Positions 2,179 through 42,932 of a DNA stretch of 42,932 nucleotides are shown piece after piece. The translations under genes and the position numbers were made by a program. How positions within the stretch are numbered: position 1 is the stretch's first letter; each line of letters starts with the position of its first letter. A model generated the notes under the pieces. It worked only from the letters and a program-made list of their open reading frames with translations. It searched no databases and was not told the origin of the DNA. The stretch covers positions 1 to 42,932 of the forward strand of contig CASFDQ010000130.1 in the NCBI GenBank assembly GCA_949293385.1, read 5' to 3'. This DNA is from an uncultured bacterium. Lineage in GTDB: Bacteria; Bacillota; Clostridia; Oscillospirales; Acutalibacteraceae.

Positions 2179-2305
2179 AACTGCCTCCAAGCGAAATATT
2201 TGAAACTACCCTTATTATAGCGCGCTAAGGTCCTTGAAAGAATAACTGTGCATTTTTATACTTGCACAAAAGATAGATTTTTGATATTATATCATCGGTG
2301 ATGCT

Positions 2306-3040: not shown

Positions 3041-3057
3041 ATTTCATCTCGGGTTTT
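3031..3057. terminator. Bidirectional terminator between the AraC gene and abfA
   Basis: Perfect 10-bp stem cccgagatga/tcatctcggg with loop att. It is flanked by an A-run on the left and TTTT on the right. Confidence 0.7.
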
Positions 3058-3061
3058 CCGT

Positions 3062-4576
<1,515 letters not shown>

Positions 4577-4654
4577 TTAAAAACTTGAAATGCATTAAAC
4601 AATAGTTTATAATGCTATAAAACTGATGTTTTCTGCTTTTTGGAGCGTGATGTT

Positions 4655-5482: not shown

Positions 5483-5497
5483 CCAAACTATAAAAAC

Positions 5498-5532
5498 AGC
5501 AAAAGCGAGGTGGATCTCACCTCGCTTTTGCT
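5498..5532. terminator. Bidirectional terminator between convergent AraC genes
   Basis: 15-bp stem agcaaaagcgaggtg / cacctcgcttttgct with a 5-nt loop, flanked by A and T runs. Confidence 0.75.
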
Positions 5533-5557
5533 ATGTATGGGTAAAAATATGCTGTTT

Positions 5558-6307
5558 TTATTTTCCGTATGTTTTAAGATCTCTCGGGGTACAGCCGAAC
5601 TGCTTTTTAACGACCCTTGCAAAATATTTGGGGTCATTAAAACCGCTTTCATAAGTGGCGTTTTCTATCGAAACTCCGTTGGATATGAGGCTTCTTGCGT
5701 ATTCAAGCCTCAGGCTTGTGATATATTCTATCGGAGTCTTTTGATAGTATTTTCTGAAAAGCTGTCTGAAATGGGTTGCGCTCATTCCCGCCTCGGAGCA
5801 GATCGCAGCGATATCGAGAGTGCTGTTTTTGTAGTTGGAATTTATAAAGGAAATCGCCTTAAGAAAATGCTCAGGCTGATTTATCTTGGTGCTTTTTTCG
5901 AGGATAAGCCCTAAGATCATATAAAGCTGTGAAAGGACGTAGACGTTAAAGCCGGGCTCCTTGTTTTTCCAGACGCTGAGAGCGCTTAAAAACAGCTTAT
6001 AGATCTTTTCGACGTTTTGAAAGGAATACACCTCCAGCTCCTTGTCGTCCCGAGAGGCGATAAAATGAATTACAAGTATTTCCGTATCGACATATTCCGC
6101 CTTGTAGGAAACGTTTTGAGGCAAATACAGGATATCGTTTGAACGTATATAATATTCCTTTCCGTCGGCGGTGATCGTCGTGTTACCGCTTATTCGAAAA
6201 GCAAGTGCCGAATAAGCGCGGGCCTTTACGTCAAAAACGCCGCTTTTCCAGCATACCCGCTCAACGCCTACGATCTTTAAAACAGGGTTATTGCCGTCGC
6301 ATAACAT
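5558..6307 (-). CDS. AraC family transcriptional regulator
   Basis: AraC HTH (GFNDPKYFARVVKKQFGCTPRDL). The upstream part of the ORF-track ORF contains a TGCTATAAT promoter box, so the start is probably the ATG at 6307, preceded by GGGGGTGGA. Confidence 0.85.
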   Translation of the reverse strand: MLCDGNNPVLKIVGVERVCWKSGVFDVKARAYSALAFRISGNTTITADGKEYYIRSNDILYLPQNVSYKAEYVDTEILVIHFIASRDDKELEVYSFQNVEKIYKLFLSALSVWKNKEPGFNVYVLSQLYMILGLILEKSTKINQPEHFLKAISFINSNYKNSTLDIAAICSEAGMSATHFRQLFRKYYQKTPIEYITSLRLEYARSLISNGVSIENATYESGFNDPKYFARVVKKQFGCTPRDLKTYGK

Positions 6308-6325
6308 TTTATCCACCCCCACCTC

Positions 6326-6353
6326 ATTATAGCACAAAATCACCGCAAGTCAA
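6326..6353 (-). promoter_or_regulatory. Sigma-70/SigA-type promoter of the AraC gene 5558..6307
   Basis: On the minus strand: TTGACT, 16 nt spacer, TGCTATAAT (extended -10). Confidence 0.55.
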
Positions 6354-6355
6354 CA

Positions 6356-6386
6356 GTTGAATAATCCACCTTTTGTGTTGAATAGT
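6356..6386 (+). promoter_or_regulatory. Direct repeat GTTGAATAAT / GTTGAATAGT, candidate AraC-type operator
   Basis: Two 10-mers, identical at 9 of 10 positions, start at 6356 and 6377. The 21-nt spacing is two helical turns. They lie in the divergent region between the AraC gene and the 6470..10044 operon. Confidence 0.4.
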
Positions 6387-6469
6387 GAGTTTCCTTCAGG
6401 CGCGTTAAGGTATATTATTGAATTGGTTAAGGCGGTAGCATTAAAAAACTAACTAAAAGGAGAAAAGCT

Positions 6470-7507
6470 ATGGCAATTAAACACACGGCGGTAAGCTACT
6501 ACGGATTAAACTACGTGGAGCACGCGATCGAAGATTTTAAGGAGATGAAGGATCACGGCTGTGACACGGTCATTCTCGCTATCACTGAGTTTGACGTGGA
6601 CTTCTGGTTCCCCAATATCAACAATATCGTAAAGGCGGCTCACGATTTAGGCCTTCGGGTCATTGCGGATACCTGGGGTATCGGTAAATATTTCGGCGGA
6701 GAGCAGGTAAGCCTCTTTCTGCAGAATAATATTCACCACCGTCAGGTTTCGGCTTACACAGGCGAGGTTTTAAACGCCGCCTGCTTTAACACCAATTCCT
6801 TCCGTGACTATTTCAAAAACATCTGTCTGAAGATCGCCAAGAACACCGAGGTCGACGGCTTTTTCTGGGACGAGCCGCACTACGCTTATCCTAAATCCTA
6901 CGCTTCTATTACGGGCGGTGCAGGTGACGACTGGGCCTGCCGCTGTCCCGAATGTATGAAGAAGTTCGAGGAATACTACGGCTACGAAATGCCCAAGTTT
7001 ATGAACGACGACGTTAAGCAGTTCCGCTGGCGCGAGGCCCTCTTTACTTTAAGCGATACCTCAAAGGCCTTAAAGGAGTATAACCCCGACCTCGAGATCA
7101 CCTGCTGTGTTCACGCAACCTTAAACAGCTACTACGTAACCGAGCTTCGCGGCTACGATAACTGGGATATGGTAGCCTCCTGTCCCTATTTCGACGTCTT
7201 CTCTACCACCATTATCAACTGGTCGTTGCCCGAGAGCTTCTTCCGCGAAATTACCGAAAGAACGGTAGCAATGGCTAAGAAATACGGTAAGCAGAGCGAG
7301 CGTTGGCTTATGGGCTATAACAAGCGTCCCGACGACTTTGCACAGATCGACAAGGTGGTAGATATGTACGAGGAATTAGGGGTAGACCGTCTTGCGACCT
7401 GGACCTACCGCGGCGGCTACGGAACGGTCGTTGCCGCAAAGGACCCGATTGAGCTTTGGGACAATATCGGAAGAAATTATAAACGCGTACTTAAAAAGGA
7501 GGACTAA
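6470..7507 (+). CDS. Uncharacterised TIM-barrel-like protein, tentatively glycoside-hydrolase-like (GH42-like Cys motif)
   Basis: 345-aa ORF with a good RBS (AAAGGAGA). It shows an alternating beta/alpha pattern. The segment WDEPHY...CRCPECMKKFEEYYG resembles the NE acid/base segment followed by the CxCxxC...F..W/Y zinc motif of GH42 enzymes. This assignment is from memory of the family and has not been searched. Confidence 0.4.
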   Translation: MAIKHTAVSYYGLNYVEHAIEDFKEMKDHGCDTVILAITEFDVDFWFPNINNIVKAAHDLGLRVIADTWGIGKYFGGEQVSLFLQNNIHHRQVSAYTGEVLNAACFNTNSFRDYFKNICLKIAKNTEVDGFFWDEPHYAYPKSYASITGGAGDDWACRCPECMKKFEEYYGYEMPKFMNDDVKQFRWREALFTLSDTSKALKEYNPDLEITCCVHATLNSYYVTELRGYDNWDMVASCPYFDVFSTTIINWSLPESFFREITERTVAMAKKYGKQSERWLMGYNKRPDDFAQIDKVVDMYEELGVDRLATWTYRGGYGTVVAAKDPIELWDNIGRNYKRVLKKED

Positions 7508-7510
7508 AAT

Positions 7511-8260
7511 ATGAACGATTTCGGATACTATAAGGCTGTTATCGAAAACCTGGAGAAGGTAAATGCGACTCAGGAGGAAAACATCAAAAAGGCGGCCTCC
7601 CTTATGGCAGACGCCATTGAAAACGACCGTCTTATAAACGTTTACGGAGGCGGCGGTCATACCACCCTGCCGGTCGGCGAAATGTTTTTCCGTGCGGGTG
7701 GCCTTTCCTGCATCAATCCCGTAATGGAAACGGGACTTTCGGTCTTTAATCAGGCCCTTAAATATTTAGAGCTTGAAAGAACCGTAAACTACGGTAGCTC
7801 GATAGTAAAATATTACGACCTTAAAAAGGACGATCTTCTTATAATTTTCCACAATATCGGAATCAATCCCGCTACCATCGACGCGGCAATGGAGGCCAAA
7901 AAGAAAGGCGCTAAAATAATAGCCGTTTCAAGCGAGGCCTGGCAAAAGGAAATGCCTGCCGATCACTTTATCCGTCATCCTAACAAGACGAATCTTTTTG
8001 ATTACGCCGACGTTTGCATAGAGGATTTCAACCCCGTCGGTGACGCCGTTGTAAATGTCCCCGGACTCGACACCCCCATCGGACCCGTTTCCAACATCGT
8101 CGATTTCTATATTGCACACCTGCTTGAGATCGAATGTGTAAGGCAGTGCATCGAAAGAGGCATCACCCCTCCCGTTTGGTCAAGCGCAAACACCCCGGGC
8201 GGTGACGAGAAAAATGCGGCCTACCTTGAAAAATACAAGCCTAGAGTTAAAATGCTTTAA
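7511..8260 (+). CDS. SIS (sugar isomerase) domain protein, UPF0309-like
   Basis: The motif NVYGGGGHTTLPVGEMFFRAGGL and the ~250-aa size are typical of the UPF0309/SIS family. It begins 3 nt after the preceding gene. Confidence 0.7.
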   Translation: MNDFGYYKAVIENLEKVNATQEENIKKAASLMADAIENDRLINVYGGGGHTTLPVGEMFFRAGGLSCINPVMETGLSVFNQALKYLELERTVNYGSSIVKYYDLKKDDLLIIFHNIGINPATIDAAMEAKKKGAKIIAVSSEAWQKEMPADHFIRHPNKTNLFDYADVCIEDFNPVGDAVVNVPGLDTPIGPVSNIVDFYIAHLLEIECVRQCIERGITPPVWSSANTPGGDEKNAAYLEKYKPRVKML

Positions 8261-8274
8261 AGGAGCTGAAAGCA

Positions 8275-8967
8275 ATGACAAATTTACAGGAAAAGCTCGA
8301 TTTTCTTACCGAAAAATACGACGTGGAAAAAAGAGCGGTGCTAAAGGATGAAAAAACCGTTATAATAGACGGTCGGGATATCCCCCTTTTCTCACACCGA
8401 CTTGAACGCAGATTTATCGAGCTTAAAAACATCGTTCAGGGCGGTACTCTCGTGGGTATCAGCGTTATGCGTGTTGCTCGTATCGTAGAAAAGGGATCGG
8501 ATATTTTTGCCGAGCTTTACCGAGAGCTGGACATCTGTCAGTACGTTTTAGGGAGAAAGCTTGTCGGAATTACCGCTATGCAAAACGACAATACCCTTAA
8601 TCTTATCGCAACCGCAGAAGAGGGCATCGTTTGCACCTTAGAGATATCCGCCACCCTTAAGGAGGGAGAGCCCGCAAAGGATAAGCACGAGATCATTTCT
8701 CAGCGCGGTATAGCCTGCGACGTCGTTGTTGACGCACAGCTAAAGCAGGACTCCATCTACCTTTTCGGCTCCGAGAATAAGAAATTCACCGACGTTGATT
8801 TTGAGCTTTACGGACTTTCTGCCGAGGATATCGCGATCGTTCGTTCTGCCTTTACTGCCACCCAAAAGGGTACCGAGGAGGAGCTCCTGGCCGCCGATTC
8901 CAAGCTTAAGGCGTTGGTGGAAAAGGCAAGAATTTCCGCCGAAACCGGAGAAAGGCAGGTAATATAA
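8275..8967 (+). CDS. Hypothetical protein, possibly a Gfo/Idh/MocA C-terminal-like domain without a Rossmann fold
   Basis: 230-aa ORF with no recognisable motif. It is translationally coupled to the next gene (stop TAA, then ATG immediately). Confidence 0.35.
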   Translation: MTNLQEKLDFLTEKYDVEKRAVLKDEKTVIIDGRDIPLFSHRLERRFIELKNIVQGGTLVGISVMRVARIVEKGSDIFAELYRELDICQYVLGRKLVGITAMQNDNTLNLIATAEEGIVCTLEISATLKEGEPAKDKHEIISQRGIACDVVVDAQLKQDSIYLFGSENKKFTDVDFELYGLSAEDIAIVRSAFTATQKGTEEELLAADSKLKALVEKARISAETGERQVI

Positions 8968-10044
8968 ATGAAACCGTTAAAAATTGCTATGATGAGTATG
9001 ACCCATGGCCATACGAGAAAATATTATCAGACCCTTAAGGATAACCCTAAGCTCGATTGGGTAGCGGTCGCTACCGCCAACGAAGAGGTAAAGGAGATAT
9101 TTTTAAACAGCGTACAGGGTATACCCTGCTACGACAGCGAGATCGAAATGCTGGACGCACACCCCGAGATCGAGGCCGTAGTTCTTGCCAGCGAAAACAG
9201 CGAGCATCTTCGTCAGATGAAGCTTTGTGCCGAGCGCGGTATTCATATTCTTTCCATGAAGGTGCCGACCTTCGATATGGACGAATACGACGAGATGATA
9301 GACGTTATCGAAAAGAAGGGTCTCGTTTGTCAGGTAGAGCTTGAAATGCATTATAATCCCGTTATCGTGCGAATGAAGGAGCTGCTCTTGAAAGGCGAGA
9401 TCGGTAAGATCAAGTCCTTTAACGCAACCAATATTACCCTTTCTCCCGTTTGGGCCTTCCCTTGGCAGGGTGTTCCCGAGAAAAGCTATGGAAAGCGCGT
9501 GCCCATAAAGGAGGGCGATCCCCGTTTCCGCGGAGGTGCACTTTGCGACCATCCCCATATTTTCGATATGATCCGCCACATGACGGGAAGCGATTTTGAA
9601 AGCATTTACGCCGAGGTGGCGCCCAACATCCGCCCCGATATCGAAGAGGAGGATATGCTTTCGGTTATCGGCAGAATGAAAGACGGAACCGTCTTTTCTC
9701 TCGACCCCTCCTGGTCTAAGATGGAGGAGCGTATCAAGGTTCCCGGTCCGGGCTGGGAGGTGTTCCCCAAGCGTATGGAGGTAAATATTACCATAAACGG
9801 CGAAAAGGGAACCCTGATGGCCGACTGCTTCGGACCCAACGTCTACCATAACGGCTGTCCGAACGACAGATATACCGTTCAGTATACCTACTTTGACGAG
9901 TGGATCGGTCTTATAGACGAGTTTGTTGATAATATCAGAAACTCCAAAACGCCTCTTATCAACCTCAAATGGCATAAGCGTACCATCGAGGCAATGAACG
10001 CCGTGTACGAGAGTATCGCCACGGGCAAGGTCGTCAAATTATAA
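8968..10044 (+). CDS. Gfo/Idh/MocA family oxidoreductase
   Basis: N-terminal Rossmann-like segment (LKIAMMSMTHGH...AVVLASENSEH...GIHILSMKVP) and a C-terminal alpha/beta domain of the typical length. Confidence 0.75.
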   Translation: MKPLKIAMMSMTHGHTRKYYQTLKDNPKLDWVAVATANEEVKEIFLNSVQGIPCYDSEIEMLDAHPEIEAVVLASENSEHLRQMKLCAERGIHILSMKVPTFDMDEYDEMIDVIEKKGLVCQVELEMHYNPVIVRMKELLLKGEIGKIKSFNATNITLSPVWAFPWQGVPEKSYGKRVPIKEGDPRFRGGALCDHPHIFDMIRHMTGSDFESIYAEVAPNIRPDIEEEDMLSVIGRMKDGTVFSLDPSWSKMEERIKVPGPGWEVFPKRMEVNITINGEKGTLMADCFGPNVYHNGCPNDRYTVQYTYFDEWIGLIDEFVDNIRNSKTPLINLKWHKRTIEAMNAVYESIATGKVVKL

Positions 10045-10357: not shown

Positions 10358-11110
10358 CTATGCCATTGTTTTAAGCATTTCTAACGTCACTTCATATCGG
10401 CAGGGTCTGTTTTGGATAAGCTTTTCGTATTCTTCTTTCATATATTCGCCCATTCGGCGTACTTCATTGCCTGAGCTTCCTGCGATATGAGGCGTGAGAA
10501 TGCAGTTTGGCAGAGTGTAAAACTCGCTGTCGCTTTCGGGCGGCTCGGGGAGGGTCACATCAAGCAGAGCCGTAAGGTCGGGGCGCGCTTTCAGTACCTT
10601 TATCAGATCTGCTTCTACAACCTGTGCCCCACGTCCCGTGTTGATAAAGGTGGCGTTAGTAAGCATCGTTTCAAACAGCCTGCCGTCTAACATCCCTTTG
10701 GTCTGCTCGTTATTGGCAAGGTGATTGGATACCACCTGACATTCCTTGAAAAGCGTTTCAAGGCCGACCTTTTTAACTCCAAGCGCAGCGGCTTTTTCAT
10801 CCGGCAAAAACGGGTCAAAGACCAGCACCTCAAGATTATAGCTTTTAAGCATATTTATGACCAGTTTGCCGATCATTCCCGCTCCGATGATTCCGATCTT
10901 CACATCATAGTTTCCGGGATATGAGTGGAAGCATTGCGAAGCGGCTTTGCGGTCACCCGTTTTTGCAAGGCGGCTGCTTCTGAAAAAAGCCCTTGTTGGC
11001 TAAAACTATCTGCGCCACGGTATATTCGGCAACGGGTACGGCATTGGCCGCCCATGCGGAAAAGCCTTATAATACGGCAGTATTACTGCATTTTTCATCT
11101 TCGCTTTTGG
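10358..11110 (-). pseudogene. D-isomer-specific 2-hydroxyacid dehydrogenase, frameshifted and 5'-degraded
   Basis: The intact 181-aa ORF covers only the NAD-binding and C-terminal part (KIGIIGAGMIGK...TPHIAGS). Upstream, the expected catalytic-domain segment GFSAWAANAVPVAEYTVAQIVLANKGFF is readable in another frame (about 10960..11050). It is preceded by an in-frame stop and followed by a TGA. Confidence 0.75.
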
Positions 11111-17141: not shown

Positions 17142-17774
17142 ATGGAAAACTTATCCGCCTTTTTATCCGAGGTTATCAGGCCTTCCGAGATAACCACCCC
17201 TACCGAGCCCTATTTTGACGTTACGAAGCACGGCGTTGTCGGCGACGGGGTCACCAATAATACGAAAGCCATAAACGAGCTTATAAAGTCGGTTTCCGGG
17301 GGAATAATATTCTTCCCTCCCGGTCGCTATCTTACGGGAACCATAATGCTTAAAAGCAATATGACCCTTTATTTGACCAGCGGCGCCGACTGCAAGGATA
17401 TGGAGCTTTTCGATTTCGGTCCCCGTCCTCTTGCCGACGATACCCCCGTTATGGAGGACATCTCCATAAATAACGTGATGGTCCGAAGGGCTACCGTCGC
17501 CGCAATGTATATTTTCGGCATACCCGAGCGTCCGATTAAAAACCTCCGTGTTCATAACTTCTCGGTCGAAAGCGTTATAGACCCCGCTATAAGACGGGAG
17601 CCGGTTATGATGCCCACCTTCGAAAAAATGCAGGGTAAGGGAATAATAATTAAAAACGTTTCCGATTCGGTCTTCTCCGAGATTTTAGTCACTACCGAAA
17701 ACGTGCCCCTCGAGTACGAAAACCTCGAAAACGTCACCTTCAACGGCAAAACCCTTGCGGCTGTGCCGCAGTGA
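17142..17774 (+). CDS. Pectate-lyase-superfamily / GH28-like protein, short form (probable internally deleted remnant)
   Basis: The N-terminus FDVTKHGVVGDGVTNNTKAINELIK...IIFFPPGRYLTGTIML is the Pectate_lyase_3/GH28 entry motif. The protein is only 210 aa, and I cannot find the central catalytic coils (NTDG, DD, HG, RIK-type motifs). The stop codon TGA (17772..17774) lies inside the first GTGATAT repeat. Confidence 0.6.
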   Translation: MENLSAFLSEVIRPSEITTPTEPYFDVTKHGVVGDGVTNNTKAINELIKSVSGGIIFFPPGRYLTGTIMLKSNMTLYLTSGADCKDMELFDFGPRPLADDTPVMEDISINNVMVRRATVAAMYIFGIPERPIKNLRVHNFSVESVIDPAIRREPVMMPTFEKMQGKGIIIKNVSDSVFSEILVTTENVPLEYENLENVTFNGKTLAAVPQ

Positions 17775-18139
17775 TATTCGCCTTCGGCGAGTGATATAGG
17801 GCTTTGCCCTGTGATATTTTTCCTTCGGAAAAGTGATATATTTTGCCTTTGGCAAAATGTTAACGTGTCTCCGACGGATCATATACGGCTTCGCACGAAA
17901 TATATTATACATCTTCCGGTCGGAAAACGATGTTGCCTTACGGCAAATGATGTTATGCTTCGCATAAACGATGTTGCGACTATCGTCGCAAACGAAATTT
18001 TTCCGTAGCGGTGGAGGGATAGTGCTCCCTCGTGAGATATTGCAAATTAGAATAAATTTCTACGGAGAGCGTAGGGGAGGGGCTTGCTCCTCCCGTGAGA
18101 TATTGCAAATTAAAATAAATCTTTTCGGCTACGAAAAAA
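17771..18139. repeat. Mini-hairpin array D: GTGATAT x4, AAAYGATGTT x3, 63-nt tandem duplication
   Basis: GTGATAT at 17771, 17791, 17811 and 17833, each followed by a different 5-8 bp hairpin with a TTC/TTT loop. GATGTT at 17929, 17949 and 17970, each followed by a hairpin. CGTGAGATATTGCAAATTA occurs at 18031 and 18094. The segment 17921..18015 is 92/95 identical to 26070..26164. Confidence 0.85.
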
Positions 18140-33931: not shown

Positions 33932-35338
33932 TTATATATTTACGCCCTGAGCTTTAAGGAGCTTTCTTACCTCGGTGCCGTCAAGTAAGGACGGTGCCGT
34001 TTTGCTTTTCACAGATATAGCCGCCGCAGTGCCTGCCGCCTGCCCCGTTAAGATACAGGTTCCCTGAATACGGGTGCTCGCGTGGGCAATATGGTCGACC
34101 GAAATACATCTTCCGCAAACCAAAAGGTTTTCAGCCTCGTCGGTAACAAGGCTTCCGTAGGGTATCTCGTAAAAGTCGCCCTTGATACTTCCGCCGATGG
34201 CCGAGGATTTACCCTTCGGGTCGTGCAGGTCGATAATATAAGAGCCTCTTGCTACAGCGTCGTCGAAGCGCTTGCAGGAGATGACCTCTCCGCCCGAAAG
34301 CAGGTATTTGCCTCTGAGCCTGCGGGTCTCTCTTATACCGAGGGTCGCGCCCGACTGAATAAGGTAGCTTTTTTCAAAACCGGGTATAAATGTCTGAAGA
34401 AAATCGACTATGGCGATAAGCTGAAGCTGAGCCTTTATCTCTCCCTCGTTAAGACTGTCCGAATCGGCGCCGTTTATACCTACTACCCGCGACATATTTA
34501 TTACGGCAACGTCGCTTTTTGTGCCTCGGGAAACGAGAACTCTGCCCTGCGGCATAGGTATACTGTCGTCGTCCGAAAGCTCGAAGCCGCAGGTGTTTGC
34601 GAAGCTCCAGTTTTCGAACCGTTCCCTCGTTATACCGTAGTCCCCGAAGAGAAGATGCTTATTGTTAAGAGCCGAAGCCCTTTCGTAATCGACTCCGCCC
34701 ATAGTAAAGAATATCGACACGGGCTGCATAACGCCTACCGCGCCCTGATACCTTTCCTCCGAATTATGCCTTATATCAAGGTCGTTTTCCTTAAGGGTAT
34801 CGTAAACTCCGCTTTCGCTTCCAAGCGAAAAATCACATCCCGAAAGGGCTAAAAGATCACCGTCACCGCTGGCGTCGATAAACACCTCGGCAAAGATCTC
34901 GGTAAAGCCCGATTTTTCCAAAATGGTTATTTTTTTGATCTCCTTACCCTCTTTTACGGTATCGCAGAGGGTAGAATGAAACCTTATTTCGACGCCCGCA
35001 TCGTCAAGCAGCTTTAAAAGAAGATACTTAACGATATGAGGGGCCGCTATCTGCCAGTGGTGGCCTTCATCGGGGTCGTTGGTGCAGTATTTTTCCGAAA
35101 GCATACACACCCCGTCGCTTATTTCCTTCAGTATTCCGCCGAAGCTCTCGCCCGATAGGGTAACCCGCGAATCGAGAGGCGTAACTATTCCGAGACCTGC
35201 CTGACCGCCCAAAACCCCCGACGACTCTATAAGAAGGGTATCGGCGCCGTTTCGTGCCGCCGCCAGTGCCGCCGCACAGCCCGCAACTCCTCCGCCTATA
35301 ACTACGACCTGCTTCTTTATAGTTTTAGATATCTTCAT
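33932..35338 (-). CDS. FAD-dependent oxidoreductase (FAD_oxidored/PF12831-like)
   Basis: Dinucleotide-binding VVVIGGGVAGCAAALAAARNG. ATG at 35338. Overlaps the end of the upstream EamA gene by 14 nt. Confidence 0.75.
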   Translation of the reverse strand: MKISKTIKKQVVVIGGGVAGCAAALAAARNGADTLLIESSGVLGGQAGLGIVTPLDSRVTLSGESFGGILKEISDGVCMLSEKYCTNDPDEGHHWQIAAPHIVKYLLLKLLDDAGVEIRFHSTLCDTVKEGKEIKKITILEKSGFTEIFAEVFIDASGDGDLLALSGCDFSLGSESGVYDTLKENDLDIRHNSEERYQGAVGVMQPVSIFFTMGGVDYERASALNNKHLLFGDYGITRERFENWSFANTCGFELSDDDSIPMPQGRVLVSRGTKSDVAVINMSRVVGINGADSDSLNEGEIKAQLQLIAIVDFLQTFIPGFEKSYLIQSGATLGIRETRRLRGKYLLSGGEVISCKRFDDAVARGSYIIDLHDPKGKSSAIGGSIKGDFYEIPYGSLVTDEAENLLVCGRCISVDHIAHASTRIQGTCILTGQAAGTAAAISVKSKTAPSLLDGTEVRKLLKAQGVNI

Positions 35339-36215
35339 TTCTCTTTCTCCCCTTAAACTTGATATCAAGCTCGCTTAAAAGCGCGCCTAAAAGAATTAAA
35401 ACTGCGCCGATCTTGGCGAAATCGTCCATAGGCTGCGAAAGGATGATAGCCGAAAGAACGATCGCAAGAGCGGGATCGATATAGCTGAAAATAGCGGCGG
35501 TGGTTGCCGATACTCCCGAAAGAGAACCGAAATAAAGAAGGTAAGCGAGTCCCGTATGAACTACTCCTACGCAGATAAGAAGCGAAAGGCTGAGGGGCGT
35601 AAAGGCCTCCGCCTTTATGCTTTCGAAAATAAGACTGTATGGCAGGACCACGATCGCGGCTGAGGCAAGCTGAACCACCGTTTTGTTGTTAGCCGAGATA
35701 TCCTTAAGCTTTTTGTTCATAAGGATGACCGAAGCGTAAAGAAGGGCCGCCGAAAGTCCGAATATTATTCCGATAACGATCTCACCTTCGGGAAGCTCTC
35801 CGCCGATGATCCCCGAAACGAAGACCATTCCGACAAGAGCCAATATTATACTGAAGAGCTTTTTAAGGGTGAAACGCTCCTTTAAAACAAAGGGAGATGC
35901 AATCATAACAAAAACCGGTGCCATATAGTAGCAAAGGGTTCCTATCGGTACTCCTGCGAACCTATAAGATTCGAAAAGGAATATCCAGTTAAAGCCTATT
36001 GCGGCTCCCGAAATAACCAGAAGCCAAAAATTATTCTTTATTTCGGTCTTGGATATGGGCGACCTTGATAAAAGCGCGAAAAGAACAAGACAAGCCGCTC
36101 CTATTCCACCGCGCACGAAGGCGATAAATCCCGACGGCAGATCGATATAGTTTACGAAAATACCGATGGTGCCGAAAATGAGCATAGAGGTTATAAGCTT
36201 AAGCTTAGAGATCAT
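35325..36215 (-). CDS. DMT/EamA family transporter
   Basis: 10-TM two-repeat architecture. The start is probably MISKLK at 36215, overlapping the yfhO stop. Confidence 0.75.
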   Translation of the reverse strand: MISKLKLITSMLIFGTIGIFVNYIDLPSGFIAFVRGGIGAACLVLFALLSRSPISKTEIKNNFWLLVISGAAIGFNWIFLFESYRFAGVPIGTLCYYMAPVFVMIASPFVLKERFTLKKLFSIILALVGMVFVSGIIGGELPEGEIVIGIIFGLSAALLYASVILMNKKLKDISANNKTVVQLASAAIVVLPYSLIFESIKAEAFTPLSLSLLICVGVVHTGLAYLLYFGSLSGVSATTAAIFSYIDPALAIVLSAIILSQPMDDFAKIGAVLILLGALLSELDIKFKGRKRNEDI

Positions 36216-38751
36216 CGGGCATTTCCTCCGTCTCCTCGTCGCTTTCGTTGAAGATATCGTCAAAGGCTTCCTCTGTAAGGTAAGCCGCGGCCTCGCTTTC
36301 AAGCTCGTTTTCCCAGCGCGAAAGAAGCTCTTCACCTTCAGGATAGCTTAGGTCGGCGCCCTGCTTTTTGCGCAGGATAAAGCATACCGCAAGGTAGATA
36401 AGAAGTATTCCGAGGGCCGAAACCGAAACTATCATACCGACACCGAGTCCGGGGGTCTTATAGGTAAATACTATCTCGCTTTTTCCCGCTTCTACGGGTA
36501 CTGCCATAAAGCCGACGTTTACCTTTTCTATGGGAGCGGCCTTTCCGTTGACCGTAGCCGACCAGCCCTCGTCGTAGGGGATCGAGAAGAAAACAAGGTT
36601 AGCACGGTCCCGCTCAACCGTTGCGGTAAAGGAATTCTTACCCGTCTTAAAGGAGGTTGCGGCGGTTGCCTGACGCTTGTCGGATTCTGCTCTGACGTCG
36701 GTGTATGACATATTGTAGCCTGCGTACTCGTCGCTTATATAGTCGTCGCGATGGGTAAGGAGATGACGGTATTTGTCTATCTGTGCCTCGTCTAAAAGAA
36801 TTGCCCTGAGCATCTCTTTAGAACGTTCGCTTCCGCTCATATCCTCACAGTCGGCATAGGACATATAAGCATCGTAGGAGAAGCCGTAACCGATATAGTT
36901 CAGGTTTTCGTAAATCTCAAAGCCCGAAGCGTTATGAATATATTCATAACCGGGCATTTCGTTATTTCCGTTTTCGTCGGTAAAGGGATCTTCCGATTCC
37001 TGCTGAATAAGATACTTAACCGAAAGAAGGGGTCTTATAGCGTAGTGATCGGTGTCGGGACGGCTTGCCACGTCGCGGTTTATTCCTATAAACTCATAAA
37101 ACTCCATTATGGAGGAGGGTACTATAGAGTGAAAGGCGTTGATACTGGAATAACCTAAGAACATAGGGGTATTATCCATACAGGAATAGGTATCAATTCT
37201 GAAGGTGTCGGGGTCGCCTTCAAGGGCAAGATCTCCCTCTATGAGCTGATCTACGACGACCTCGTGGGTATAGGAATGGGACTTTCCTCCCGCTATGAAG
37301 AAATTGGTATAAAATATCGCCGCGACCATAGCCCAGAGGATAGAATGTTTAACGAATTTTTTGGTGTCGTTTCTGAATTTCTTAATAAGGACGAAGAGTA
37401 TGCAAAGGCAAACAAGAGCAACGGCGCAGGTTATCCAGAAGCGGCTTACATACATAAGGTTATTGGGTTCGGTAAAGAGACCGAATATAAGTCCGTCGTC
37501 GGTGGTCTGCGGGAAGAAGCCGACGATAAGGGTAATACCCATAGTTATTCCGAAGACCCACTTGAAGGGCTTATCGAAGGAGATGTCGGTCTGCTCTACG
37601 GCGATAGACGTGGCAAGGGCCATAAGCAGTATGGGCATATAGAACCAGCGTACGTAGTAAGCGTCGTTAAAGGCGTAAAAGGCCGAGTTTAAAACAGGAA
37701 CGAAGGCCATCACGGCGCAGGTTATAAGAACCCTTTTGAGCCAGCTCCCCTTTCGGGCGTGGACAAAAGCGAAAACTCCCACCATACTGAAAAGCGGTAG
37801 CCACGCTCCCAGTGACGACCATTTTACGTCGGCCTCGGGGAAGAATACGGGTCGGGCGGGAAGGTCGGGCGGGAAGAAGAATACCTCGAAAACGTTGGCA
37901 TAAATACTTTCCTTGCCGAAAAGAAGAGAGTTCCAGCCGAGGTCTATCTCGCTTATACGGGAGTTTCCCGAAATGGCAAGATAGGAAGGCAGAAGAACGA
38001 TACAGGCAAGGAGCATTCCGATTATCGCCTCAAAGAATACCGCAAAAAATACCGATGCGGTGGGCTTTATGGCGCGGCTTATAAGCCTTATCACAAAATA
38101 GATAACTCCGAATACCAGCATTCCGACGAAGAAGAAATAGTTCACCATGGCGCAGACCGCTACCGTTACCGCAAAAACGCCCCGTTTGTTTTCGGTCACG
38201 AGCATTTCGAAGGCAAGCAGCAGAAGCGGAAAGAATACTATCGCTTCGTGGAAATGATTGAAAAAGATATTGTAGATCGAGAAGCCCGAAAAGGCGTAAA
38301 GGAGAGCGCCGAGCTTGGCGGTATAGTCGTAGCGGGTAAAACGTCTTATAAATAAAAAGGCAGTGAGGGCGGCGCAGGCGAACTTTAAAATAAGAAGCGG
38401 TCCCATAAAATAAGGCACCCAGGAGTTCGGGAAGGGCAGGGTCAGCCAGAAAAAAGGACTCGTAATATTATAAAAGGTATAAGAGCCTATAAAGTTAGCG
38501 CCCAGATCGGTAGTAAAGCTCCAACCGATCTCTCCGTTTCTGATAGCCTCGTGACAAAGCTTATAGAAGGGTATCTGCTGAACGTTAAAGTCGCCGAAGA
38601 ACAAAAAATATCCTCCGTCGTATATCATAAAAGGCACGAAAAAGCAGGCGGCGCAGACAAGTGCGATAAAAAATACCGACCGCGCCTGCCCTTTTTCTTT
38701 ACCGAGCAGTCGTTTTTTTGCGACAGAATAGGTCAAAGCCGTTTCCTCCAT
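36205..38751 (-). CDS. yfhO: YfhO family membrane protein (GT-C-like glycosyltransferase)
   Basis: 848 aa. Many N-terminal TM helices, a large extracytoplasmic domain, a final TM helix and an acidic tail; this is the typical YfhO layout. Confidence 0.75.
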   Translation of the reverse strand: MEETALTYSVAKKRLLGKEKGQARSVFFIALVCAACFFVPFMIYDGGYFLFFGDFNVQQIPFYKLCHEAIRNGEIGWSFTTDLGANFIGSYTFYNITSPFFWLTLPFPNSWVPYFMGPLLILKFACAALTAFLFIRRFTRYDYTAKLGALLYAFSGFSIYNIFFNHFHEAIVFFPLLLLAFEMLVTENKRGVFAVTVAVCAMVNYFFFVGMLVFGVIYFVIRLISRAIKPTASVFFAVFFEAIIGMLLACIVLLPSYLAISGNSRISEIDLGWNSLLFGKESIYANVFEVFFFPPDLPARPVFFPEADVKWSSLGAWLPLFSMVGVFAFVHARKGSWLKRVLITCAVMAFVPVLNSAFYAFNDAYYVRWFYMPILLMALATSIAVEQTDISFDKPFKWVFGITMGITLIVGFFPQTTDDGLIFGLFTEPNNLMYVSRFWITCAVALVCLCILFVLIKKFRNDTKKFVKHSILWAMVAAIFYTNFFIAGGKSHSYTHEVVVDQLIEGDLALEGDPDTFRIDTYSCMDNTPMFLGYSSINAFHSIVPSSIMEFYEFIGINRDVASRPDTDHYAIRPLLSVKYLIQQESEDPFTDENGNNEMPGYEYIHNASGFEIYENLNYIGYGFSYDAYMSYADCEDMSGSERSKEMLRAILLDEAQIDKYRHLLTHRDDYISDEYAGYNMSYTDVRAESDKRQATAATSFKTGKNSFTATVERDRANLVFFSIPYDEGWSATVNGKAAPIEKVNVGFMAVPVEAGKSEIVFTYKTPGLGVGMIVSVSALGILLIYLAVCFILRKKQGADLSYPEGEELLSRWENELESEAAAYLTEEAFDDIFNESDEETEEMPDDL

Positions 38752-38819: not shown

Positions 38820-39398
38820 ATGCCGAGTCATTTTTACGCCATTCTTTCCCGAATGAAAAACATAAACCGCTGGGGCCTTATGAGAAACACCCGTCAGGAG
38901 AATTTAAGCGAGCATTCCTTAGAGGTAGCCTTTATCGCTCACTGCCTTGCCCTTATCGGGAACAAGAGAATGGGAAAAAGCTACGACGCCGACAGAATTG
39001 CGGTCTGCGCCATGTTTCACGATACCTCCGAGATCATTACCGGCGATATGCCGACTCCGATAAAATACTATAACCCCGAAATCAAAGAGGCCTATAAAAA
39101 GATCGAGGCGGTGGCCGAGGAGGAGCTTATCTCTATGCTTCCCGAGGATTTAAGGGAAGAATTTTCGTCGGTCTATTCTCCCGACCCCGATGCCGAGCGT
39201 CTTATCAAAGCGGCCGATAAGCTTTCGGCCCTTATAAAATGTATCGAAGAGGTCAAAATGGGCAATTTGGAGTTTAAGGACGCCGAGATCTCAACGAGAG
39301 CCTCCATAGAAAGACTCGGCTGCCCCGAGGCCGACGCCTTTATGGCGGAATTTATCGACAGCTTCTATTTAACCCTCGACGAGCAAAGAAAAAACTGA
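38820..39398 (+). CDS. yfbR: HD-domain 5'-deoxynucleotidase, YfbR-like
   Basis: Motifs RW...NLSEHSLEVA and FHDTSEIITGDMPTPIK. Confidence 0.8.
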   Translation: MPSHFYAILSRMKNINRWGLMRNTRQENLSEHSLEVAFIAHCLALIGNKRMGKSYDADRIAVCAMFHDTSEIITGDMPTPIKYYNPEIKEAYKKIEAVAEEELISMLPEDLREEFSSVYSPDPDAERLIKAADKLSALIKCIEEVKMGNLEFKDAEISTRASIERLGCPEADAFMAEFIDSFYLTLDEQRKN

Positions 39399-39653: not shown

Positions 39654-39687
39654 AGAGGATATGTATCAAGTTGGATACATATCCTCT
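39654..39687. terminator. Bidirectional terminator between the yfbR-like and EamA genes
   Basis: Perfect 14-bp stem agaggatatgtatc / gatacatatcctct with a 6-nt loop, flanked by A7 on the left and a T-rich run on the right. Confidence 0.8.
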
Positions 39688-39712: not shown

Positions 39713-40591
39713 TTAAAGGTCAGTTTTTTGTTTCTCCAAAAGAATTATTCCCGCTACTACGCCGAGCATACCGACGATGCCGGTAATTCCCGGATTTTCA
39801 CCGAAGGCCAAAAAGCCAACAACGGCGGCGACCACCGGCTCGATTATCGAAAGGACGGCCGCCTTGCCTGCCTCGGTTTTCGAAAGACCGTAGGTATAAA
39901 GCAGATAGGGCAGTATCGTACAAATAACCGATATTAAAGCTCCGAGAAGTATGTTTTCGGGGCGGTAAAAAAGAGGGATCACCTTGCCAATATTGCATAT
40001 TGGGATAGCTCCTGCCGACGCGAAGGCAAAGGTGTAGAAAATAACCGTAGTTGTGGAATATTTTCTTGTTGCGTACTTTCCGAAAATACTGTAAAGTCCG
40101 TAACCGAGACCCGAAAGCAGGCCGTAAACGAGGCCGATACTGCTGAGCCTGAGCGAAGAAGAAAGGCAGAGCACCGCGCAGGAAATAATGCATATCAAAA
40201 GGGCCAAAAGCTTACCGACAGTCAGCTTTTCTTTAAAAAGCAACGCCGAAAAGAGGGTTACCCATATCGGAGAGGTGTACATCAGCATACAGGCTACCGA
40301 AACCGAGTTTTCGCCGATAGAGGACATATAGCAGACGTTGAAAAAGAGAAAGCTTGCTATCCCCGTACCTAAAAACATCCAAAGATCTTTAAGCCTTATT
40401 TTAAGAAGGGAGCGGTCCTTTATAAGTATTACGAAGAACATTACGACGGTGGTGGTGACCGCCCTTACCGCAACTATCATGGGCGAGGAAAAGCCGTTTT
40501 CCTGCATAGGTCGGGTAAAAAGGCTTATACAGCCCCAAAGCACGGCCGCCGAGATTATGGAAAGGTCCTGCCTTTTTATAAATTTCGCCAT
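39713..40591 (-). CDS. DMT/EamA family transporter
   Basis: 292 aa, 10 TM, two EamA-like halves. Starts 3 nt after the RnfA-like stop. Confidence 0.75.
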   Translation of the reverse strand: MAKFIKRQDLSIISAAVLWGCISLFTRPMQENGFSSPMIVAVRAVTTTVVMFFVILIKDRSLLKIRLKDLWMFLGTGIASFLFFNVCYMSSIGENSVSVACMLMYTSPIWVTLFSALLFKEKLTVGKLLALLICIISCAVLCLSSSLRLSSIGLVYGLLSGLGYGLYSIFGKYATRKYSTTTVIFYTFAFASAGAIPICNIGKVIPLFYRPENILLGALISVICTILPYLLYTYGLSKTEAGKAAVLSIIEPVVAAVVGFLAFGENPGITGIVGMLGVVAGIILLEKQKTDL

Positions 40592-40594
40592 AGC

Positions 40595-41173
40595 TTAAAC
40601 TCCTGTAAAGCCCTGAAATGCCATAGAGATCAGAGCGGCGACGAGGAGGGTTACGGGAAGCCCTCTGAGTGAACGGGGAAGCTCCTCACTGTTTAAAACG
40701 CCGCGCAGAGACCAAAAGATCAAAGAAACCAAAAGAAATCCTATCATAGAGAACACCGCGTAAAGCAGAGCGGTAGCGTAATCCGAAACCGCGCTCGAAG
40801 AAAAGAGCTTAAGGCATATTCCGAGTACGAGTGCCGAGCAGGTCGTAACGGCTTTATAGCCGTTTAAGAAGCCGTAGACCGCGGGCAGGAAGAGCTTTGT
40901 AAGGGTAAAGGCGGCAAAAATAAGTCCGCAGATAACGAGAACGCAGATAAGCCCCGTCAGCACCTCGAGTCCAAGCAGAGGAAGGACCCATTTTATTACG
41001 GGGTAGGAAACGGCCGAGGATAAAAAGACGAGGACCGCCGTAATACCGCACCGTTTAAGTATTTCGGTAAAGGAGGGTGATTTGTCGGTGGCCTGCTCGA
41101 ACCCTAAAAGGGAAGAAAGCATAATATTGTCGGTCAAGACCGCGGCCGCGACTACCGAAAGGAATATACTCAT
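40595..41173 (-). CDS. RnfA/NqrE-like membrane subunit (Rnf-Nqr family), divergent
   Basis: 192 aa, 6 TM. The C-terminal LRGLPVTLLVAALISMAFQGFTG matches the RnfA C-terminus pattern, and a central VTTCSALVLG is present. ATGA overlap with the upstream gene. Confidence 0.6.
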   Translation of the reverse strand: MSIFLSVVAAAVLTDNIMLSSLLGFEQATDKSPSFTEILKRCGITAVLVFLSSAVSYPVIKWVLPLLGLEVLTGLICVLVICGLIFAAFTLTKLFLPAVYGFLNGYKAVTTCSALVLGICLKLFSSSAVSDYATALLYAVFSMIGFLLVSLIFWSLRGVLNSEELPRSLRGLPVTLLVAALISMAFQGFTGV

Positions 41174-41763
41174 TTCTGCTCCTCCTTTCGCTTTTTATTT
41201 TTGCCGACCGAAAGGCAGTAGACCGTAAGCAGGACTGCCGTCGTAAGAAGACCGCCCGCAGGGGTCTTTAAAAAGGCTATGGGGGTAAGATATTTCGAAT
41301 AGATATCGAAGCCTAAAAGGCTTCCGTTTCCGAAAAACTCCCTTATTAAAGAGGAAACTATCAAAAAGGCCGAACCTACCGCCGCCGATAATCCACAGCC
41401 CGAAATAAGTCCCGAAAGATCGGCGCTTATAACGAAATCGCTTCGGACGAGAAGTACCGCAGATACCGCCGCAATATTTACGTAGATGCCGAGGGCCGCA
41501 ATATCCTCCTTAAAGAATATACCGAGCAGGGTCGCCGAAATTCCTACGACTCCGACCGAAATAATAAGTCGGGCAAAGGGGGCGGTCTTTTCGGTTAAAA
41601 GGGCTTTTAGGGCGAATACCGCAAGGGAGGAAATAATAAGAGCTAAAACGGTTATGACCGAAATGAGAAGTCCCGTTTTAACCGAAGCGGATACCGCAAC
41701 AAGGGGCAGAACAGCCAGAACCCAGTTTTCATAAAGTTGCTTTTCTCTTAAAAGGTCAAGCAT
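41170..41763 (-). CDS. RnfE/NqrD-like membrane subunit (Rnf-Nqr family), divergent
   Basis: 197 aa, 6 TM. LGIYVNIAAVSAVLLVRS and SSLIREFFGNGSLLG align by eye with the RnfE segments LGIF.PLI.VNC.ILGR and IRE..G.G. Overlaps the rnfD-like stop by 8 nt. Confidence 0.55.
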   Translation of the reverse strand: MLDLLREKQLYENWVLAVLPLVAVSASVKTGLLISVITVLALIISSLAVFALKALLTEKTAPFARLIISVGVVGISATLLGIFFKEDIAALGIYVNIAAVSAVLLVRSDFVISADLSGLISGCGLSAAVGSAFLIVSSLIREFFGNGSLLGFDIYSKYLTPIAFLKTPAGGLLTTAVLLTVYCLSVGKNKKRKEEQK

Positions 41764-42679
41764 TTTCTTCCTCCTTTCTTACGGCGAGCATCCTTCCGAA
41801 AGGAACCGTAGGCAGATAGCGGTCTATAGCGGGAACCGCAAGATTCATAAGAATAATACTATAGGAGACGCCTTCGGGCATACCTCCGAAAATACGGAAG
41901 AACATGGTCAAAAGGCCGCAGCCAATACCGAAAACGAGCTGACCTACGGGGGTCACGGGGCTCGTGGTATAATCGGTTGCCATAAATATCGCCCCGAGAA
42001 GTATTCCGCCTGAGCAGACCTCGGTCAAAGGAGCCCGTCCCGCAATAAGGGAAACGAGCATAACGGTAAGAATAAAGGAAAGAGGAATATGCAGGGTTAT
42101 TACCTTTCTTAAAACCAGATAGGCACCCCCGAAAAGCAGCATGACCTCCGAGGTCTCGCCGATGGTACCGCTGCAGACCCCGAAGAAAAGCTCTTTAAAT
42201 ATGTAATTGCCGCCCGAAAGCGGGGTAGCCGCAGCCACTAGGTCGGTAAAGGGCTCGTAATAGGTCGACATGGCGGTACCGAAGGACAAAAGCATAAAAA
42301 CTCTTGCCGCCGCGGCAGGGTTTAAAAGATTTTTTCCGATTCCGCCGAAAAGGATCTTTATAACGACGATCGCAAAAGCCGAGCCGACAGCCGCCATATA
42401 AAAAGGTATTCTCGGAGGAAGGTTAAGGGCCAGAATAAGACCCGTTACCGCCGCCGAAAGATCCCAAGCGGTAACCGGCTTTTTAAGAATGTAGCAGAAA
42501 AGAGCCTCGGACAAAACGGCAGAGGCTACCGAAACGGCAACGACCAATAAAGCCCTGAAGCCGAAGATAGAAACGCCGAAAAGGGTTACGGGAGAAAGAG
42601 CGACGATAAGGTCGAACATGATCCGCCTTGTGCTTTCGGCGGCTTTTATATGAGGAGAGATAGCGGTAATAAGTTCCAT
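41756..42679 (-). CDS. RnfD/NqrB-like membrane subunit
   Basis: N-terminal SPHI, FGGIGKNLLNPAAAARVF, GTIGETSEV and FMATDYTTSP motifs typical of RnfD/NqrB. ATG at 42679 behind GGAGGTG. Confidence 0.75.
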   Translation of the reverse strand: MELITAISPHIKAAESTRRIMFDLIVALSPVTLFGVSIFGFRALLVVAVSVASAVLSEALFCYILKKPVTAWDLSAAVTGLILALNLPPRIPFYMAAVGSAFAIVVIKILFGGIGKNLLNPAAAARVFMLLSFGTAMSTYYEPFTDLVAAATPLSGGNYIFKELFFGVCSGTIGETSEVMLLFGGAYLVLRKVITLHIPLSFILTVMLVSLIAGRAPLTEVCSGGILLGAIFMATDYTTSPVTPVGQLVFGIGCGLLTMFFRIFGGMPEGVSYSIILMNLAVPAIDRYLPTVPFGRMLAVRKEEENA

Positions 42680-42706
42680 TAAGCACCTCCGCAAAATATT
42701 TATAAC

Positions 42707-42735
42707 ATTTTACCATATTTTGTCGGATATTACAA
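42707..42735 (-). promoter_or_regulatory. SigA-type promoter of the rnfDEA-like operon
   Basis: On the minus strand: TTGTAA, 17 nt spacer, TGGTAAAAT (extended -10). Confidence 0.55.

Positions 42736-42855: not shown

Positions 42856-42932
<77 letters not shown>

Follow-up and report, generated by a model that had tools for sequence, protein, structure and literature searches.

A conserved, cut-down Rnf membrane module without its [2Fe-2S] ligands in uncultured gut Clostridia

We have described here a three-subunit membrane module encoded in a 42,932 bp stretch of DNA from an uncultured bacterium of the Acutalibacteraceae (contig CASFDQ010000130.1 of assembly GCA_949293385.1), the whole of which we refer to as the window. 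The module is a conserved, cut-down Rnf, of which we found no description in the literature searched, and its genes are the first three of a minus-strand operon at positions 39713–42679 whose products are, in order, RnfD-like (D'), RnfE-like (E') and RnfA-like (A') proteins and a transporter of the EamA family. D'E'A' is descended from clostridial Rnf. The branch of Rnf in which electrons pass from ferredoxin to RnfB, then to the [2Fe-2S] cluster shared by RnfA and RnfE, and on to RnfG is inoperable, because the cluster ligands of E' and A' are lost and rnfB, rnfG and rnfC are absent from the loci of this clade that we inspected; the module is therefore no ferredoxin:NAD+ oxidoreductase. What it does instead is a matter for weighing, and we tentatively favor the proposal that it combines a flavin-bearing RnfD conduit for electrons with a cluster-less E/A pair acting as a scaffold or a cation path, probably with partners encoded elsewhere. 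An initial annotation of the window had taken the locus for a repurposed, possibly non-redox derivative of the Rnf/Nqr membrane core that works with a small-molecule transporter. Descent from the Rnf core is borne out by a conserved family with ten loci that carry D-E-A only; the other two parts of that description fare less well, as discussed below.

The three proteins belong to the Rnf/Nqr families and to no other characterised family that we could find: in HMMER searches all of them exceed the Pfam gathering scores, which are 27.7 for PF03116 (NQR2_RnfD_RnfE) and 23.8 for PF02508 (Rnf-Nqr) (Table 1). D' is the sole subunit to pass a curated NCBIfam cutoff for Rnf, that of TIGR01946 (rnfD). 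E' and A' are very divergent, since they score far under the corresponding cutoffs (41.9 versus 213.4 bits for TIGR01948, rnfE; 72.6 versus 229.3 bits for TIGR01943, rnfA), and their relatives carry the label 'hypothetical protein' at NCBI. The Nqr equivalog cutoffs are all missed (NqrB, 135 versus 414; NqrD, 31 versus 235; NqrE, 29 versus 248). An AlphaFold2 model of E' (predicted local distance difference test score of 70) has RnfE (9eri_E) as its best structural match, with a template modelling score of 0.70, followed by NqrD, and on this evidence E' keeps both the RnfE fold and its identity as an E subunit.

In Acetobacterium woodii the [2Fe-2S] centre is ligated by C25 and C113 of RnfA and by C25 and C108 of RnfE (Kumar et al. 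2025, PMC11889175). We located the equivalent residues in HMMER alignments to the A. woodii Rnf chains (9eri_E and 9eri_A) and in MAFFT alignments that include the canonical operon of locus L019; the two agree, and the canonical cysteine positions are substituted at all four places (Table 1). The initial annotation had read by eye that E' has no cysteine at these sites, and L19 and A102 confirm this. Its reading of A' stands for the first ligand, which is lost (E26), and not for the second, which it had thought to be kept: C112, within TTCSALVLG, aligns with T111, two residues upstream of the ligand position, and A114 occupies the ligand position itself, so that the one conserved cysteine is out of register. 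Loss of the ligands is not peculiar to the window, as cysteine is missing from both ligand columns in all 12 E-like proteins that score at least 135 bits in a profile search. The E'/A' pair thus cannot hold a canonical [2Fe-2S] centre. In A' the residue aligned with RnfA Cys25, or the one after it, is acidic (Glu or Asp) in nine of ten trio lineages, and C112 is likewise conserved in nine of the ten. The equivalent of the acidic E115 of RnfE is retained in E' as D109, and R67, which in RnfE belongs to the Na+ entry ion pair, is lost and replaced by A61.

D' has evolved more slowly than its companions, with 62–80% identity between lineages compared with 34–60% for E' and 42–67% for A', and it scores 269 bits against RnfD of Clostridium tetanomorphum (7zc6_D). 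It has the sequence TDLVAAATPL, with the flavin mononucleotide (FMN) attachment threonine in AAATPL, an NPA motif (N125), an aspartate within MATDY, and an N-terminal arm with the residues SPHI. All 54 members of the clade have the threonine within the flavinylation-type sequence [ST]D..A[AST]ATPL; the NPA asparagine is likewise present in all 54, and the MATDY aspartate in 53 of them; the latter two are the equivalents of N123 and D249, the riboflavin ligands of A. woodii RnfD (PMC11889175). The N-terminal cytoplasmic arm, ISPHIKAAESTRRIMFD, has a pairwise identity of 0.60 in the trio clade versus 0.67 among canonical RnfD proteins (0.70 versus 0.71 for the core of the protein), and in the C. 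tetanomorphum complex this arm is buried in RnfC (PMC9588780). These sequence features argue that D' still binds its flavins and make a non-redox D' unlikely. We do not therefore accept the suggestion that the module is possibly non-redox, because the flavin sites (including the FMN-attachment threonine, whose scoring had been proposed as a check) and the RnfC-docking arm are kept and D' is evolving slowly. The conservation of D', its N-terminal arm included, also makes a cytoplasmic partner encoded elsewhere plausible.

The trio is not confined to one genome. An E' profile run against 1.84 billion representative sequences recovered 12 full-length proteins scoring at least 135 bits, with the next matches no higher than 88 bits, and found no relatives in the Joint Genome Institute metagenome collection. 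A pattern search of genome contigs with E' yielded four species genomes only, E' being too divergent for the purpose, and it was the search with D' that revealed the larger family, comprising about 52 clusters (at 90% identity) that are 59–92% identical and form one clade. In a neighbour-joining tree this clade holds all seven D proteins whose trio context was verified, and its sister clade is that of canonical clostridial RnfD, including P0231 from a complete rnfC-D-G-E-A-B operon (L019/L020). The hosts are all uncultured Clostridia, entered as Acutalibacteraceae, as Eubacteriales or as 'Clostridia bacterium', and the single record that names a sampling site gives water-deer rectum. Assemblies with the trio include, besides that of the window, GCA_052841705.1, GCA_964599835.1, GCA_045590355.1, GCA_052838125.1, SFWF01, JAZOBS01 and JAGBGJ01.

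We inspected ten trio loci, namely the window and L001–L005, L007, L008, L011/12 and L018. In all ten the order is D-E-A, the D and E genes having no rnfG between them, and the available flanks contain no RnfC, RnfG, RnfB, ApbE or ferredoxin-type cysteine motif. Within the window, the 36 largest open reading frames (ORFs) include no match to RnfC, RnfG, RnfB, ApbE or FMN_bind, and custom hidden Markov models and a ferredoxin-motif scan recovered none of the missing Rnf partners. The absence of C, G and B that the initial annotation had reported for this locus is thus a property of its orthologues as well, none of which has rnfC, rnfG or rnfB adjacent; the neighbourhood survey that it had called for finds the D-E-A trio in each of the ten, and the EamA gene in part of them. 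The chromosomal order is fixed, with a divergent tRNA-Met, the trio, one variable gene, a convergent yfbR and then yfhO, and the promoter motif CTTGTAA-N17-TATGnTAAAAT is invariant across six lineages. This fixed setting and invariant promoter indicate vertical inheritance of the trio within a clade of uncultured, Oscillospirales/Acutalibacteraceae-like Clostridia of the gut. The trio is under purifying selection: the ORFs of the trio are intact in every lineage, and the ratios of nonsynonymous to synonymous substitution (dN/dS) between the window and L005 are 0.09 for D, 0.16 for E, 0.11 for A and 0.12 for EamA, at dS values of 0.42–0.70 that are unsaturated.

A second group of loci has reduced Rnf clusters of another kind, lacking RnfB only. 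L013/14 have the order ApbE-RnfC-D-G-E-A-NusG_II-Hpre_diP_synt_I, and L015/16 and L017 have RnfC-D-G-E-A, in each case with a more distant Cys-less E (Table 1). In L013 ApbE lies upstream and RnfG is 414 residues long, with NusG_II, Hpre_diP_synt_I and ECF genes downstream. The E subunits of these clusters are without any cysteine; in the A subunits the first ligand is replaced by Asp or Glu, L017 alone having kept its cysteine there. RnfC-D-G-E-A without RnfB looks like a one-way system in which electrons would pass from NADH to C, D and G. Because such intermediates exist, it follows that E and A are kept after the cluster is lost and that the C-D-G branch can stand alone, and this suggests a stepwise reduction from CDGEAB, through loss of B together with the AE cluster, to loss or relocation of G and C. 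Related to these forms, a cultured Acutalibacteraceae isolate, BL-6, has rnfC-D-E-A annotated (CLOSBL6_v1_3464–3469) with an exported protein of unknown function after rnfA and no rnfG annotated, and its authors call this Rnf incomplete; an RsxB-like gene is present at locus 0694, along with an Ech hydrogenase (PMC7764203, supplementary file 4). The initial annotation had C, G and B as constant members of canonical Rnf operons, which is too strong in view of the B-less C-D-G-E-A clusters and the C-D-E-A arrangement annotated in BL-6. We also note that BL-6 may serve as a culturable model for the reduced Rnf forms. Another Cys-less form is found at L010 (339–1945; genes read from a short contig), in which an RnfD with TAIHPL, having His for the flavinylation Thr, lies beside an E with Thr and Gly at the ligand positions.

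Comparison with known systems places the trio closest to canonical clostridial Rnf (A. woodii 9eri and C. tetanomorphum 7zc6). D' is about 50% identical to its counterparts there (268–269 bits) and shares with them the FMN threonine, the riboflavin ligands and the N-terminal arm, and E' and A' are full-length homologues in the same D...E-A order; the trio loci differ in being without C, G and B, with rnfG missing between D and E, and in E' and A' having all four [2Fe-2S] cysteines replaced and scoring far below the NCBIfam cutoffs. The B-less clusters of L013–L017 resemble the trio in having lost the RnfB branch and the E/A ligands while keeping the FMN threonine of RnfD, and in having an acidic residue (Asp or Glu) in place of RnfA Cys25, but they retain RnfC and RnfG (and ApbE in L013), and so a full path from NADH through C and D to G in cis, and in the tree their D proteins fall outside the clade of the trio. 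BL-6 shares the family, the adjacency of D, E and A, and the lack of an annotated rnfG between D and E; as annotated, it departs from the trio in having rnfC directly upstream, the exported protein after rnfA and the RsxB-like gene elsewhere. The trio also shares with the 'NQR/RNF-like' systems (Meheust et al. 2021, Huang et al. 2024) the nature of a reduced Rnf/Nqr derivative built around an NqrB/RnfD-type domain. Those are two-subunit systems, found mainly in Actinobacteria and the candidate phyla radiation, in which a fusion of D with an NqrF-type NAD-binding domain is paired with an FMN_bind subunit, without a flavinylation threonine in D and without E or A, and they have been proposed to move electrons one way across the membrane (PMC8238504, PMC11334425); their definition is an NqrB/RnfD fused to the NqrF domain PF00175 and clustered with FMN_bind or ApbE (PMC8238504). 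In contrast, the trio keeps the threonine and both E and A, has no fusion (D' is 307 residues long with PF03116 only), and has no FMN_bind or ApbE nearby. Na+-NQR has homologous membrane subunits (NqrB, NqrD and NqrE) and the same cluster site between D and E, but the similarity is far lower (81 bits to NqrB, 16–27 bits to NqrD and NqrE) and NqrA, NqrC and NqrF are missing from the trio. No description of a D-E-A-only or a B-less Rnf was found in the literature searched, and such forms did not turn up under the terms searched in a 2025 review of Rnf and Nqr.

The gene that follows A' is the variable part of the operon. Only four loci, those of the window's own sub-clade (the window itself with L002, L004 and L005), have an EamA gene directly after A'; in L001 the EamA orthologue is upstream, beyond the tRNA, as a separate unit, in L003, L007, L008 and L011/12 a DUF2752 protein takes the EamA slot, and L018 has neither. 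Because the fourth gene varies among loci, the link to a transporter is lineage-specific and cannot define the system, and EamA would be an optional lineage-specific passenger or accessory and not a core partner; its coupling to the trio is weak, and the proposal that the module works with a small-molecule transporter is not supported, as outside the four loci in which EamA follows A' it is replaced, moved or absent. The EamA protein itself has the two PF00892 repeats of the drug/metabolite transporter (DMT) superfamily and reaches no substrate-specific NCBIfam equivalog. The DUF2752 proteins have three or four transmembrane helices and a conserved PC-x9-C-x2-CG motif, and in L007 their gene overlaps that of A' by 14 nt, while in L008 it begins after a gap of 3 nt. 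A Zn-ribbon/DUF4234 gene is inserted between the two in L003 and L011, with gaps of about 100 nt. We note separately that a second, weakly scoring EamA-family ORF lies right after yfhO (window, 35325–36335, minus strand; L002, 6785–7678; L007, 14775–15662), and that a third DMT transporter of the window is at 236–1093; the yfhO neighbourhood thus has two DMT transporters.

Several models for the role of the module are plausible to differing degrees. In the one that we tentatively favor, D' would be a two-flavin protein that passes electrons across the membrane from a cytoplasmic donor to an extracytosolic acceptor. The donor would dock on the conserved N-terminal arm of D' and would most simply be a hypothetical RnfC-like NADH-oxidising module encoded elsewhere, and the acceptor, also encoded elsewhere, could be an extracytosolic flavoprotein or a small acceptor. 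E' and A' would be kept as the structural partner of D', possibly offering a carboxylate-based cation path in which the fixed Glu or Asp aligned with RnfA Cys25 and the conserved Cys/Ser would together stand in for the negative charge that Rnf has from its cluster in the reduced state. That cluster, once reduced, draws Na+ electrostatically into an alternating-access site in RnfA/RnfE of A. woodii (PMC11889175), so that a fixed carboxylate at that spot would be a reasonable replacement. A number of observations weigh against this proposal. No RnfC-like, FMN_bind or ApbE partner was seen within 10 kb in any trio locus; the carboxylate/cysteine pattern fails in L018, the one exception among the ten lineages for both the acidic residue and C112 (CGLSA and LTGSA); and the C-terminal arm of D', which also contacts RnfC, is poorly conserved (0.19 versus 0.37 in canonical RnfD). 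Conservation of flavin-binding residues does not prove flavin binding or electron flow, the neighbour-joining tree is without support values, and DUF2752, with its three conserved cysteines and its translational coupling in deeper lineages, could be a real fourth subunit. A trio that is self-sufficient, with no RnfC, RnfG or RnfB anywhere in the genome, would act either as a flavin-gated or carboxylate-based cation transporter or as a two-flavin conduit fed by soluble carriers, and this we consider unlikely.

We also think it improbable that the Rnf core has been repurposed as a non-redox transporter or channel, with alternating access in E'/A' operating through the carboxylate and D' in a structural or channel role, perhaps together with EamA. 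Such a model draws on the A. woodii precedent, in which RnfA/RnfE form an alternating-access path for Na+ with the charge on the cluster, when reduced, as its driving force (PMC11889175), on the Glu/Asp and Cys/Ser at the cluster site in nine of ten lineages and likewise in the B-less variants, on the retained D109, on the lack of any redox partner encoded nearby and on the translational proximity of EamA in the window. However, it leaves the strict conservation of the flavinylation threonine, its motif and the riboflavin ligands of D' without explanation, as well as that of the RnfC-docking arm, and it has to accommodate both the replacement or absence of EamA in most lineages and the loss of the R67 ion-pair residue. 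Conservation of that arm would be accounted for if a canonical rnfCDGEAB operon were present elsewhere in the genome and D'E'A' exchanged with its subunits or modulated it, for example as an uncoupled or regulatory isoform sharing RnfC, RnfG and RnfB; cultured Acutalibacteraceae, BL-4 and CPB6 among them, commonly have canonical Rnf (PMC7764203), and D' has canonical clostridial RnfD as its sister clade. We regard this as rather less than likely and indeed fairly doubtful, in that E' and A' without a cluster take no electrons from RnfB and a hybrid cannot run the ferredoxin branch, E' and A' are far diverged (42–73 bits versus cutoffs of 213–229), including at surfaces such as R67 of RnfE, and the trio sits at a fixed place in the chromosome, behind a conserved promoter of its own. 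A further model makes DUF2752 the true fourth subunit, its cysteines ligating a metal or cluster or the protein acting as a thiol-redox partner, with the lineage of the window having lost or moved it and gained EamA. Its position immediately after A' in L003, L007, L008 and L011/12, with the overlap and short gap described above, and its conserved motif and transmembrane helices are consistent with this, but DUF2752 is absent from the 43-kb window, from the loci of the window's sub-clade and from L018, is separated from A' by the Zn-ribbon gene and its gaps in L003 and L011, and could owe its adjacency to inherited synteny, as is probable for yfbR and yfhO. The literature searched makes no mention of DUF2752. 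We know of no DUF2752-Rnf link, and hold this model to be very doubtful. Lastly, loss of C, G, B and the cysteine ligands together with the fast evolution of E' and A' could be taken to describe a decaying, functionless remnant of Rnf, but this is effectively refuted: a remnant is excluded because the ORFs are intact in every lineage and under purifying selection (dN/dS of 0.09–0.16), and the translational coupling, promoter and ribosome-binding site are conserved in a family whose roughly 52 sequence clusters reach down to 59% identity in D.

How electron transfer is coupled to the crossing of Na+ is an open question in the Rnf/Nqr field, and the crossing site is disputed, with RnfA/RnfE proposed in one study (PMC11889175) and RnfD/NqrB in another (PMC9588780), and with an NqrB pathway described by Hau et al. 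2023 (as summarised in PMC12174285). The trio clade and the B-less variants amount to natural dissection mutants in which A and E outlive the cluster, usually with a carboxylate in its stead, and the flavin sites of RnfD are kept. Since A and E survive loss of the cluster, they must have a role that is independent of it, and the trio and B-less proteins provide defined material for testing such a role. The interest of these natural cluster-less A/E pairs, joined to an intact RnfD, for bioenergetics is limited by the question of partners in trans. If the trio should prove self-sufficient, the Rnf/Nqr membrane core would function as a unit by itself, and an A/E pair naturally without a cluster would be at hand to decide which of the subunits conducts ions. 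In practical terms annotation is affected too: because D' is annotated as 'RnfABCDGE ... subunit D', pathway callers may credit gut Clostridia with an Rnf complex that is impossible.

The layout of the operon is as the initial annotation had described it, with four coupled minus-strand genes behind a single promoter-like site, and upstream only that promoter and the divergent tRNA (Table 1). Read from the sequence, D' and E' overlap by 8 nt (ATGCTTGA), E' and A' overlap by 4 nt (ATGA), and a 3-nt gap separates A' from EamA. We take the ATG at 42679 as the start of D', as GGAGGTG precedes it and it agrees with the N-termini of homologues; the TTG at 42694 given by the ORF lister is a less likely alternative. 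The leader 5' of D' is short and unstructured, its fold being no better than that of shuffled sequences. A riboswitch or other leader RNA upstream of D' was considered and rejected, as an Rfam search at gathering thresholds over eight loci gave only tRNA-Met and an unrelated Gut-1 RNA.

Table 1. Coordinates and scores of the operon, its signals and neighbours in the window, the cluster-ligand positions, and related genes in other loci
Feature	Position	Strand	Evidence or remark
RnfD-like gene (D', 307 aa)	41756–42679	-	PF03116, 345 bits; TIGR01946, 269.6 versus cutoff 207
RnfE-like gene (E', 197 aa)	41170–41763	-	PF02508, 47.7 bits
RnfA-like gene (A', 192 aa)	40595–41173	-	PF02508, 48.2 bits
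EamA/DMT transporter gene (292 aa)	39713–40591	-	PF00892, 153 bits, two domains
Sigma-A-type promoter, predicted	42707–42735	-	Consensus scan: -35 TTGTAA, 17-nt spacer, extended -10 TG-TAAAAT
Ribosome-binding site GGAGGTG	42684–42690	-	4 nt 5' of the D' ATG; kept in homologous leaders
Intrinsic terminator, bidirectional	39654–39687	both	14-bp stem, 6-nt loop, T-runs on each strand
tRNA-Met, divergent	42856–42932	+	ARAGORN; outside the module, synteny anchor
YfbR-type 5'-deoxynucleotidase gene, convergent	38820–39398	+	PF12917, 257 bits; NF003009, 254 bits
Ligand position RnfE C25	E' L19		AVLP versus GMCP
Ligand position RnfE C108	E' A102		VSA versus VNC
Ligand position RnfA C25	A' E26		GFEQ versus GICP
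Ligand position RnfA C113	A' A114
DUF2752 gene, L003	3099–3512
DUF2752 gene, L007	11150–11572
DUF2752 gene, L008	3107–3511
DUF2752 gene, L011	7911–8279
B-less Rnf cluster, L013	128–6676
B-less Rnf cluster, L014
B-less Rnf cluster, L015	2894–6793
B-less Rnf cluster, L016
B-less Rnf cluster, L017	336–4628

The bidirectional terminator stands between the operon and the convergent yfbR, which follows the module in L002–L004, L007, L008 and L011/12 and is a separate transcription unit. YfbR and YfhO were considered as functional partners and set aside, since both are in convergent or separate transcription units and their proximity is probably synteny. A tRNA was found by Rfam at the equivalent relative position in L001, L003, L004, L007 and L011. 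In L018 an island at 968–9655 lies directly upstream of the trio, between it and the place that the divergent tRNA-Met has in the other loci. The island has genes for an integrase, a helix-turn-helix regulator, a primase/VapE-like protein and Fic, and we take it for a probable mobile element whose insertion was in the tRNA gene or close to it. For the window itself a mobile-element or defence context was rejected; it is ordinary chromosome, and among the products of its remaining 32 large ORFs are carbohydrate enzymes, AraC regulators, RecG, FakA, YmdB, YfhO and YfbR. One of the window's ORFs, of 181 residues (10358–10903, minus strand), matches only positions 38–178 of the 2-Hacid_dh_C NAD-binding domain, with no catalytic-domain ORF among those scanned beside it, and is either a truncated dehydrogenase gene or one with a mis-called start. 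The Gut-1 RNA match (RF01706, 65 bits versus a gathering score of 50) is at 17769–17844 on the plus strand, with its start inside the final bases of an ORF at 17142–17774 that is rhamnogalacturonase/pectate-lyase-like.

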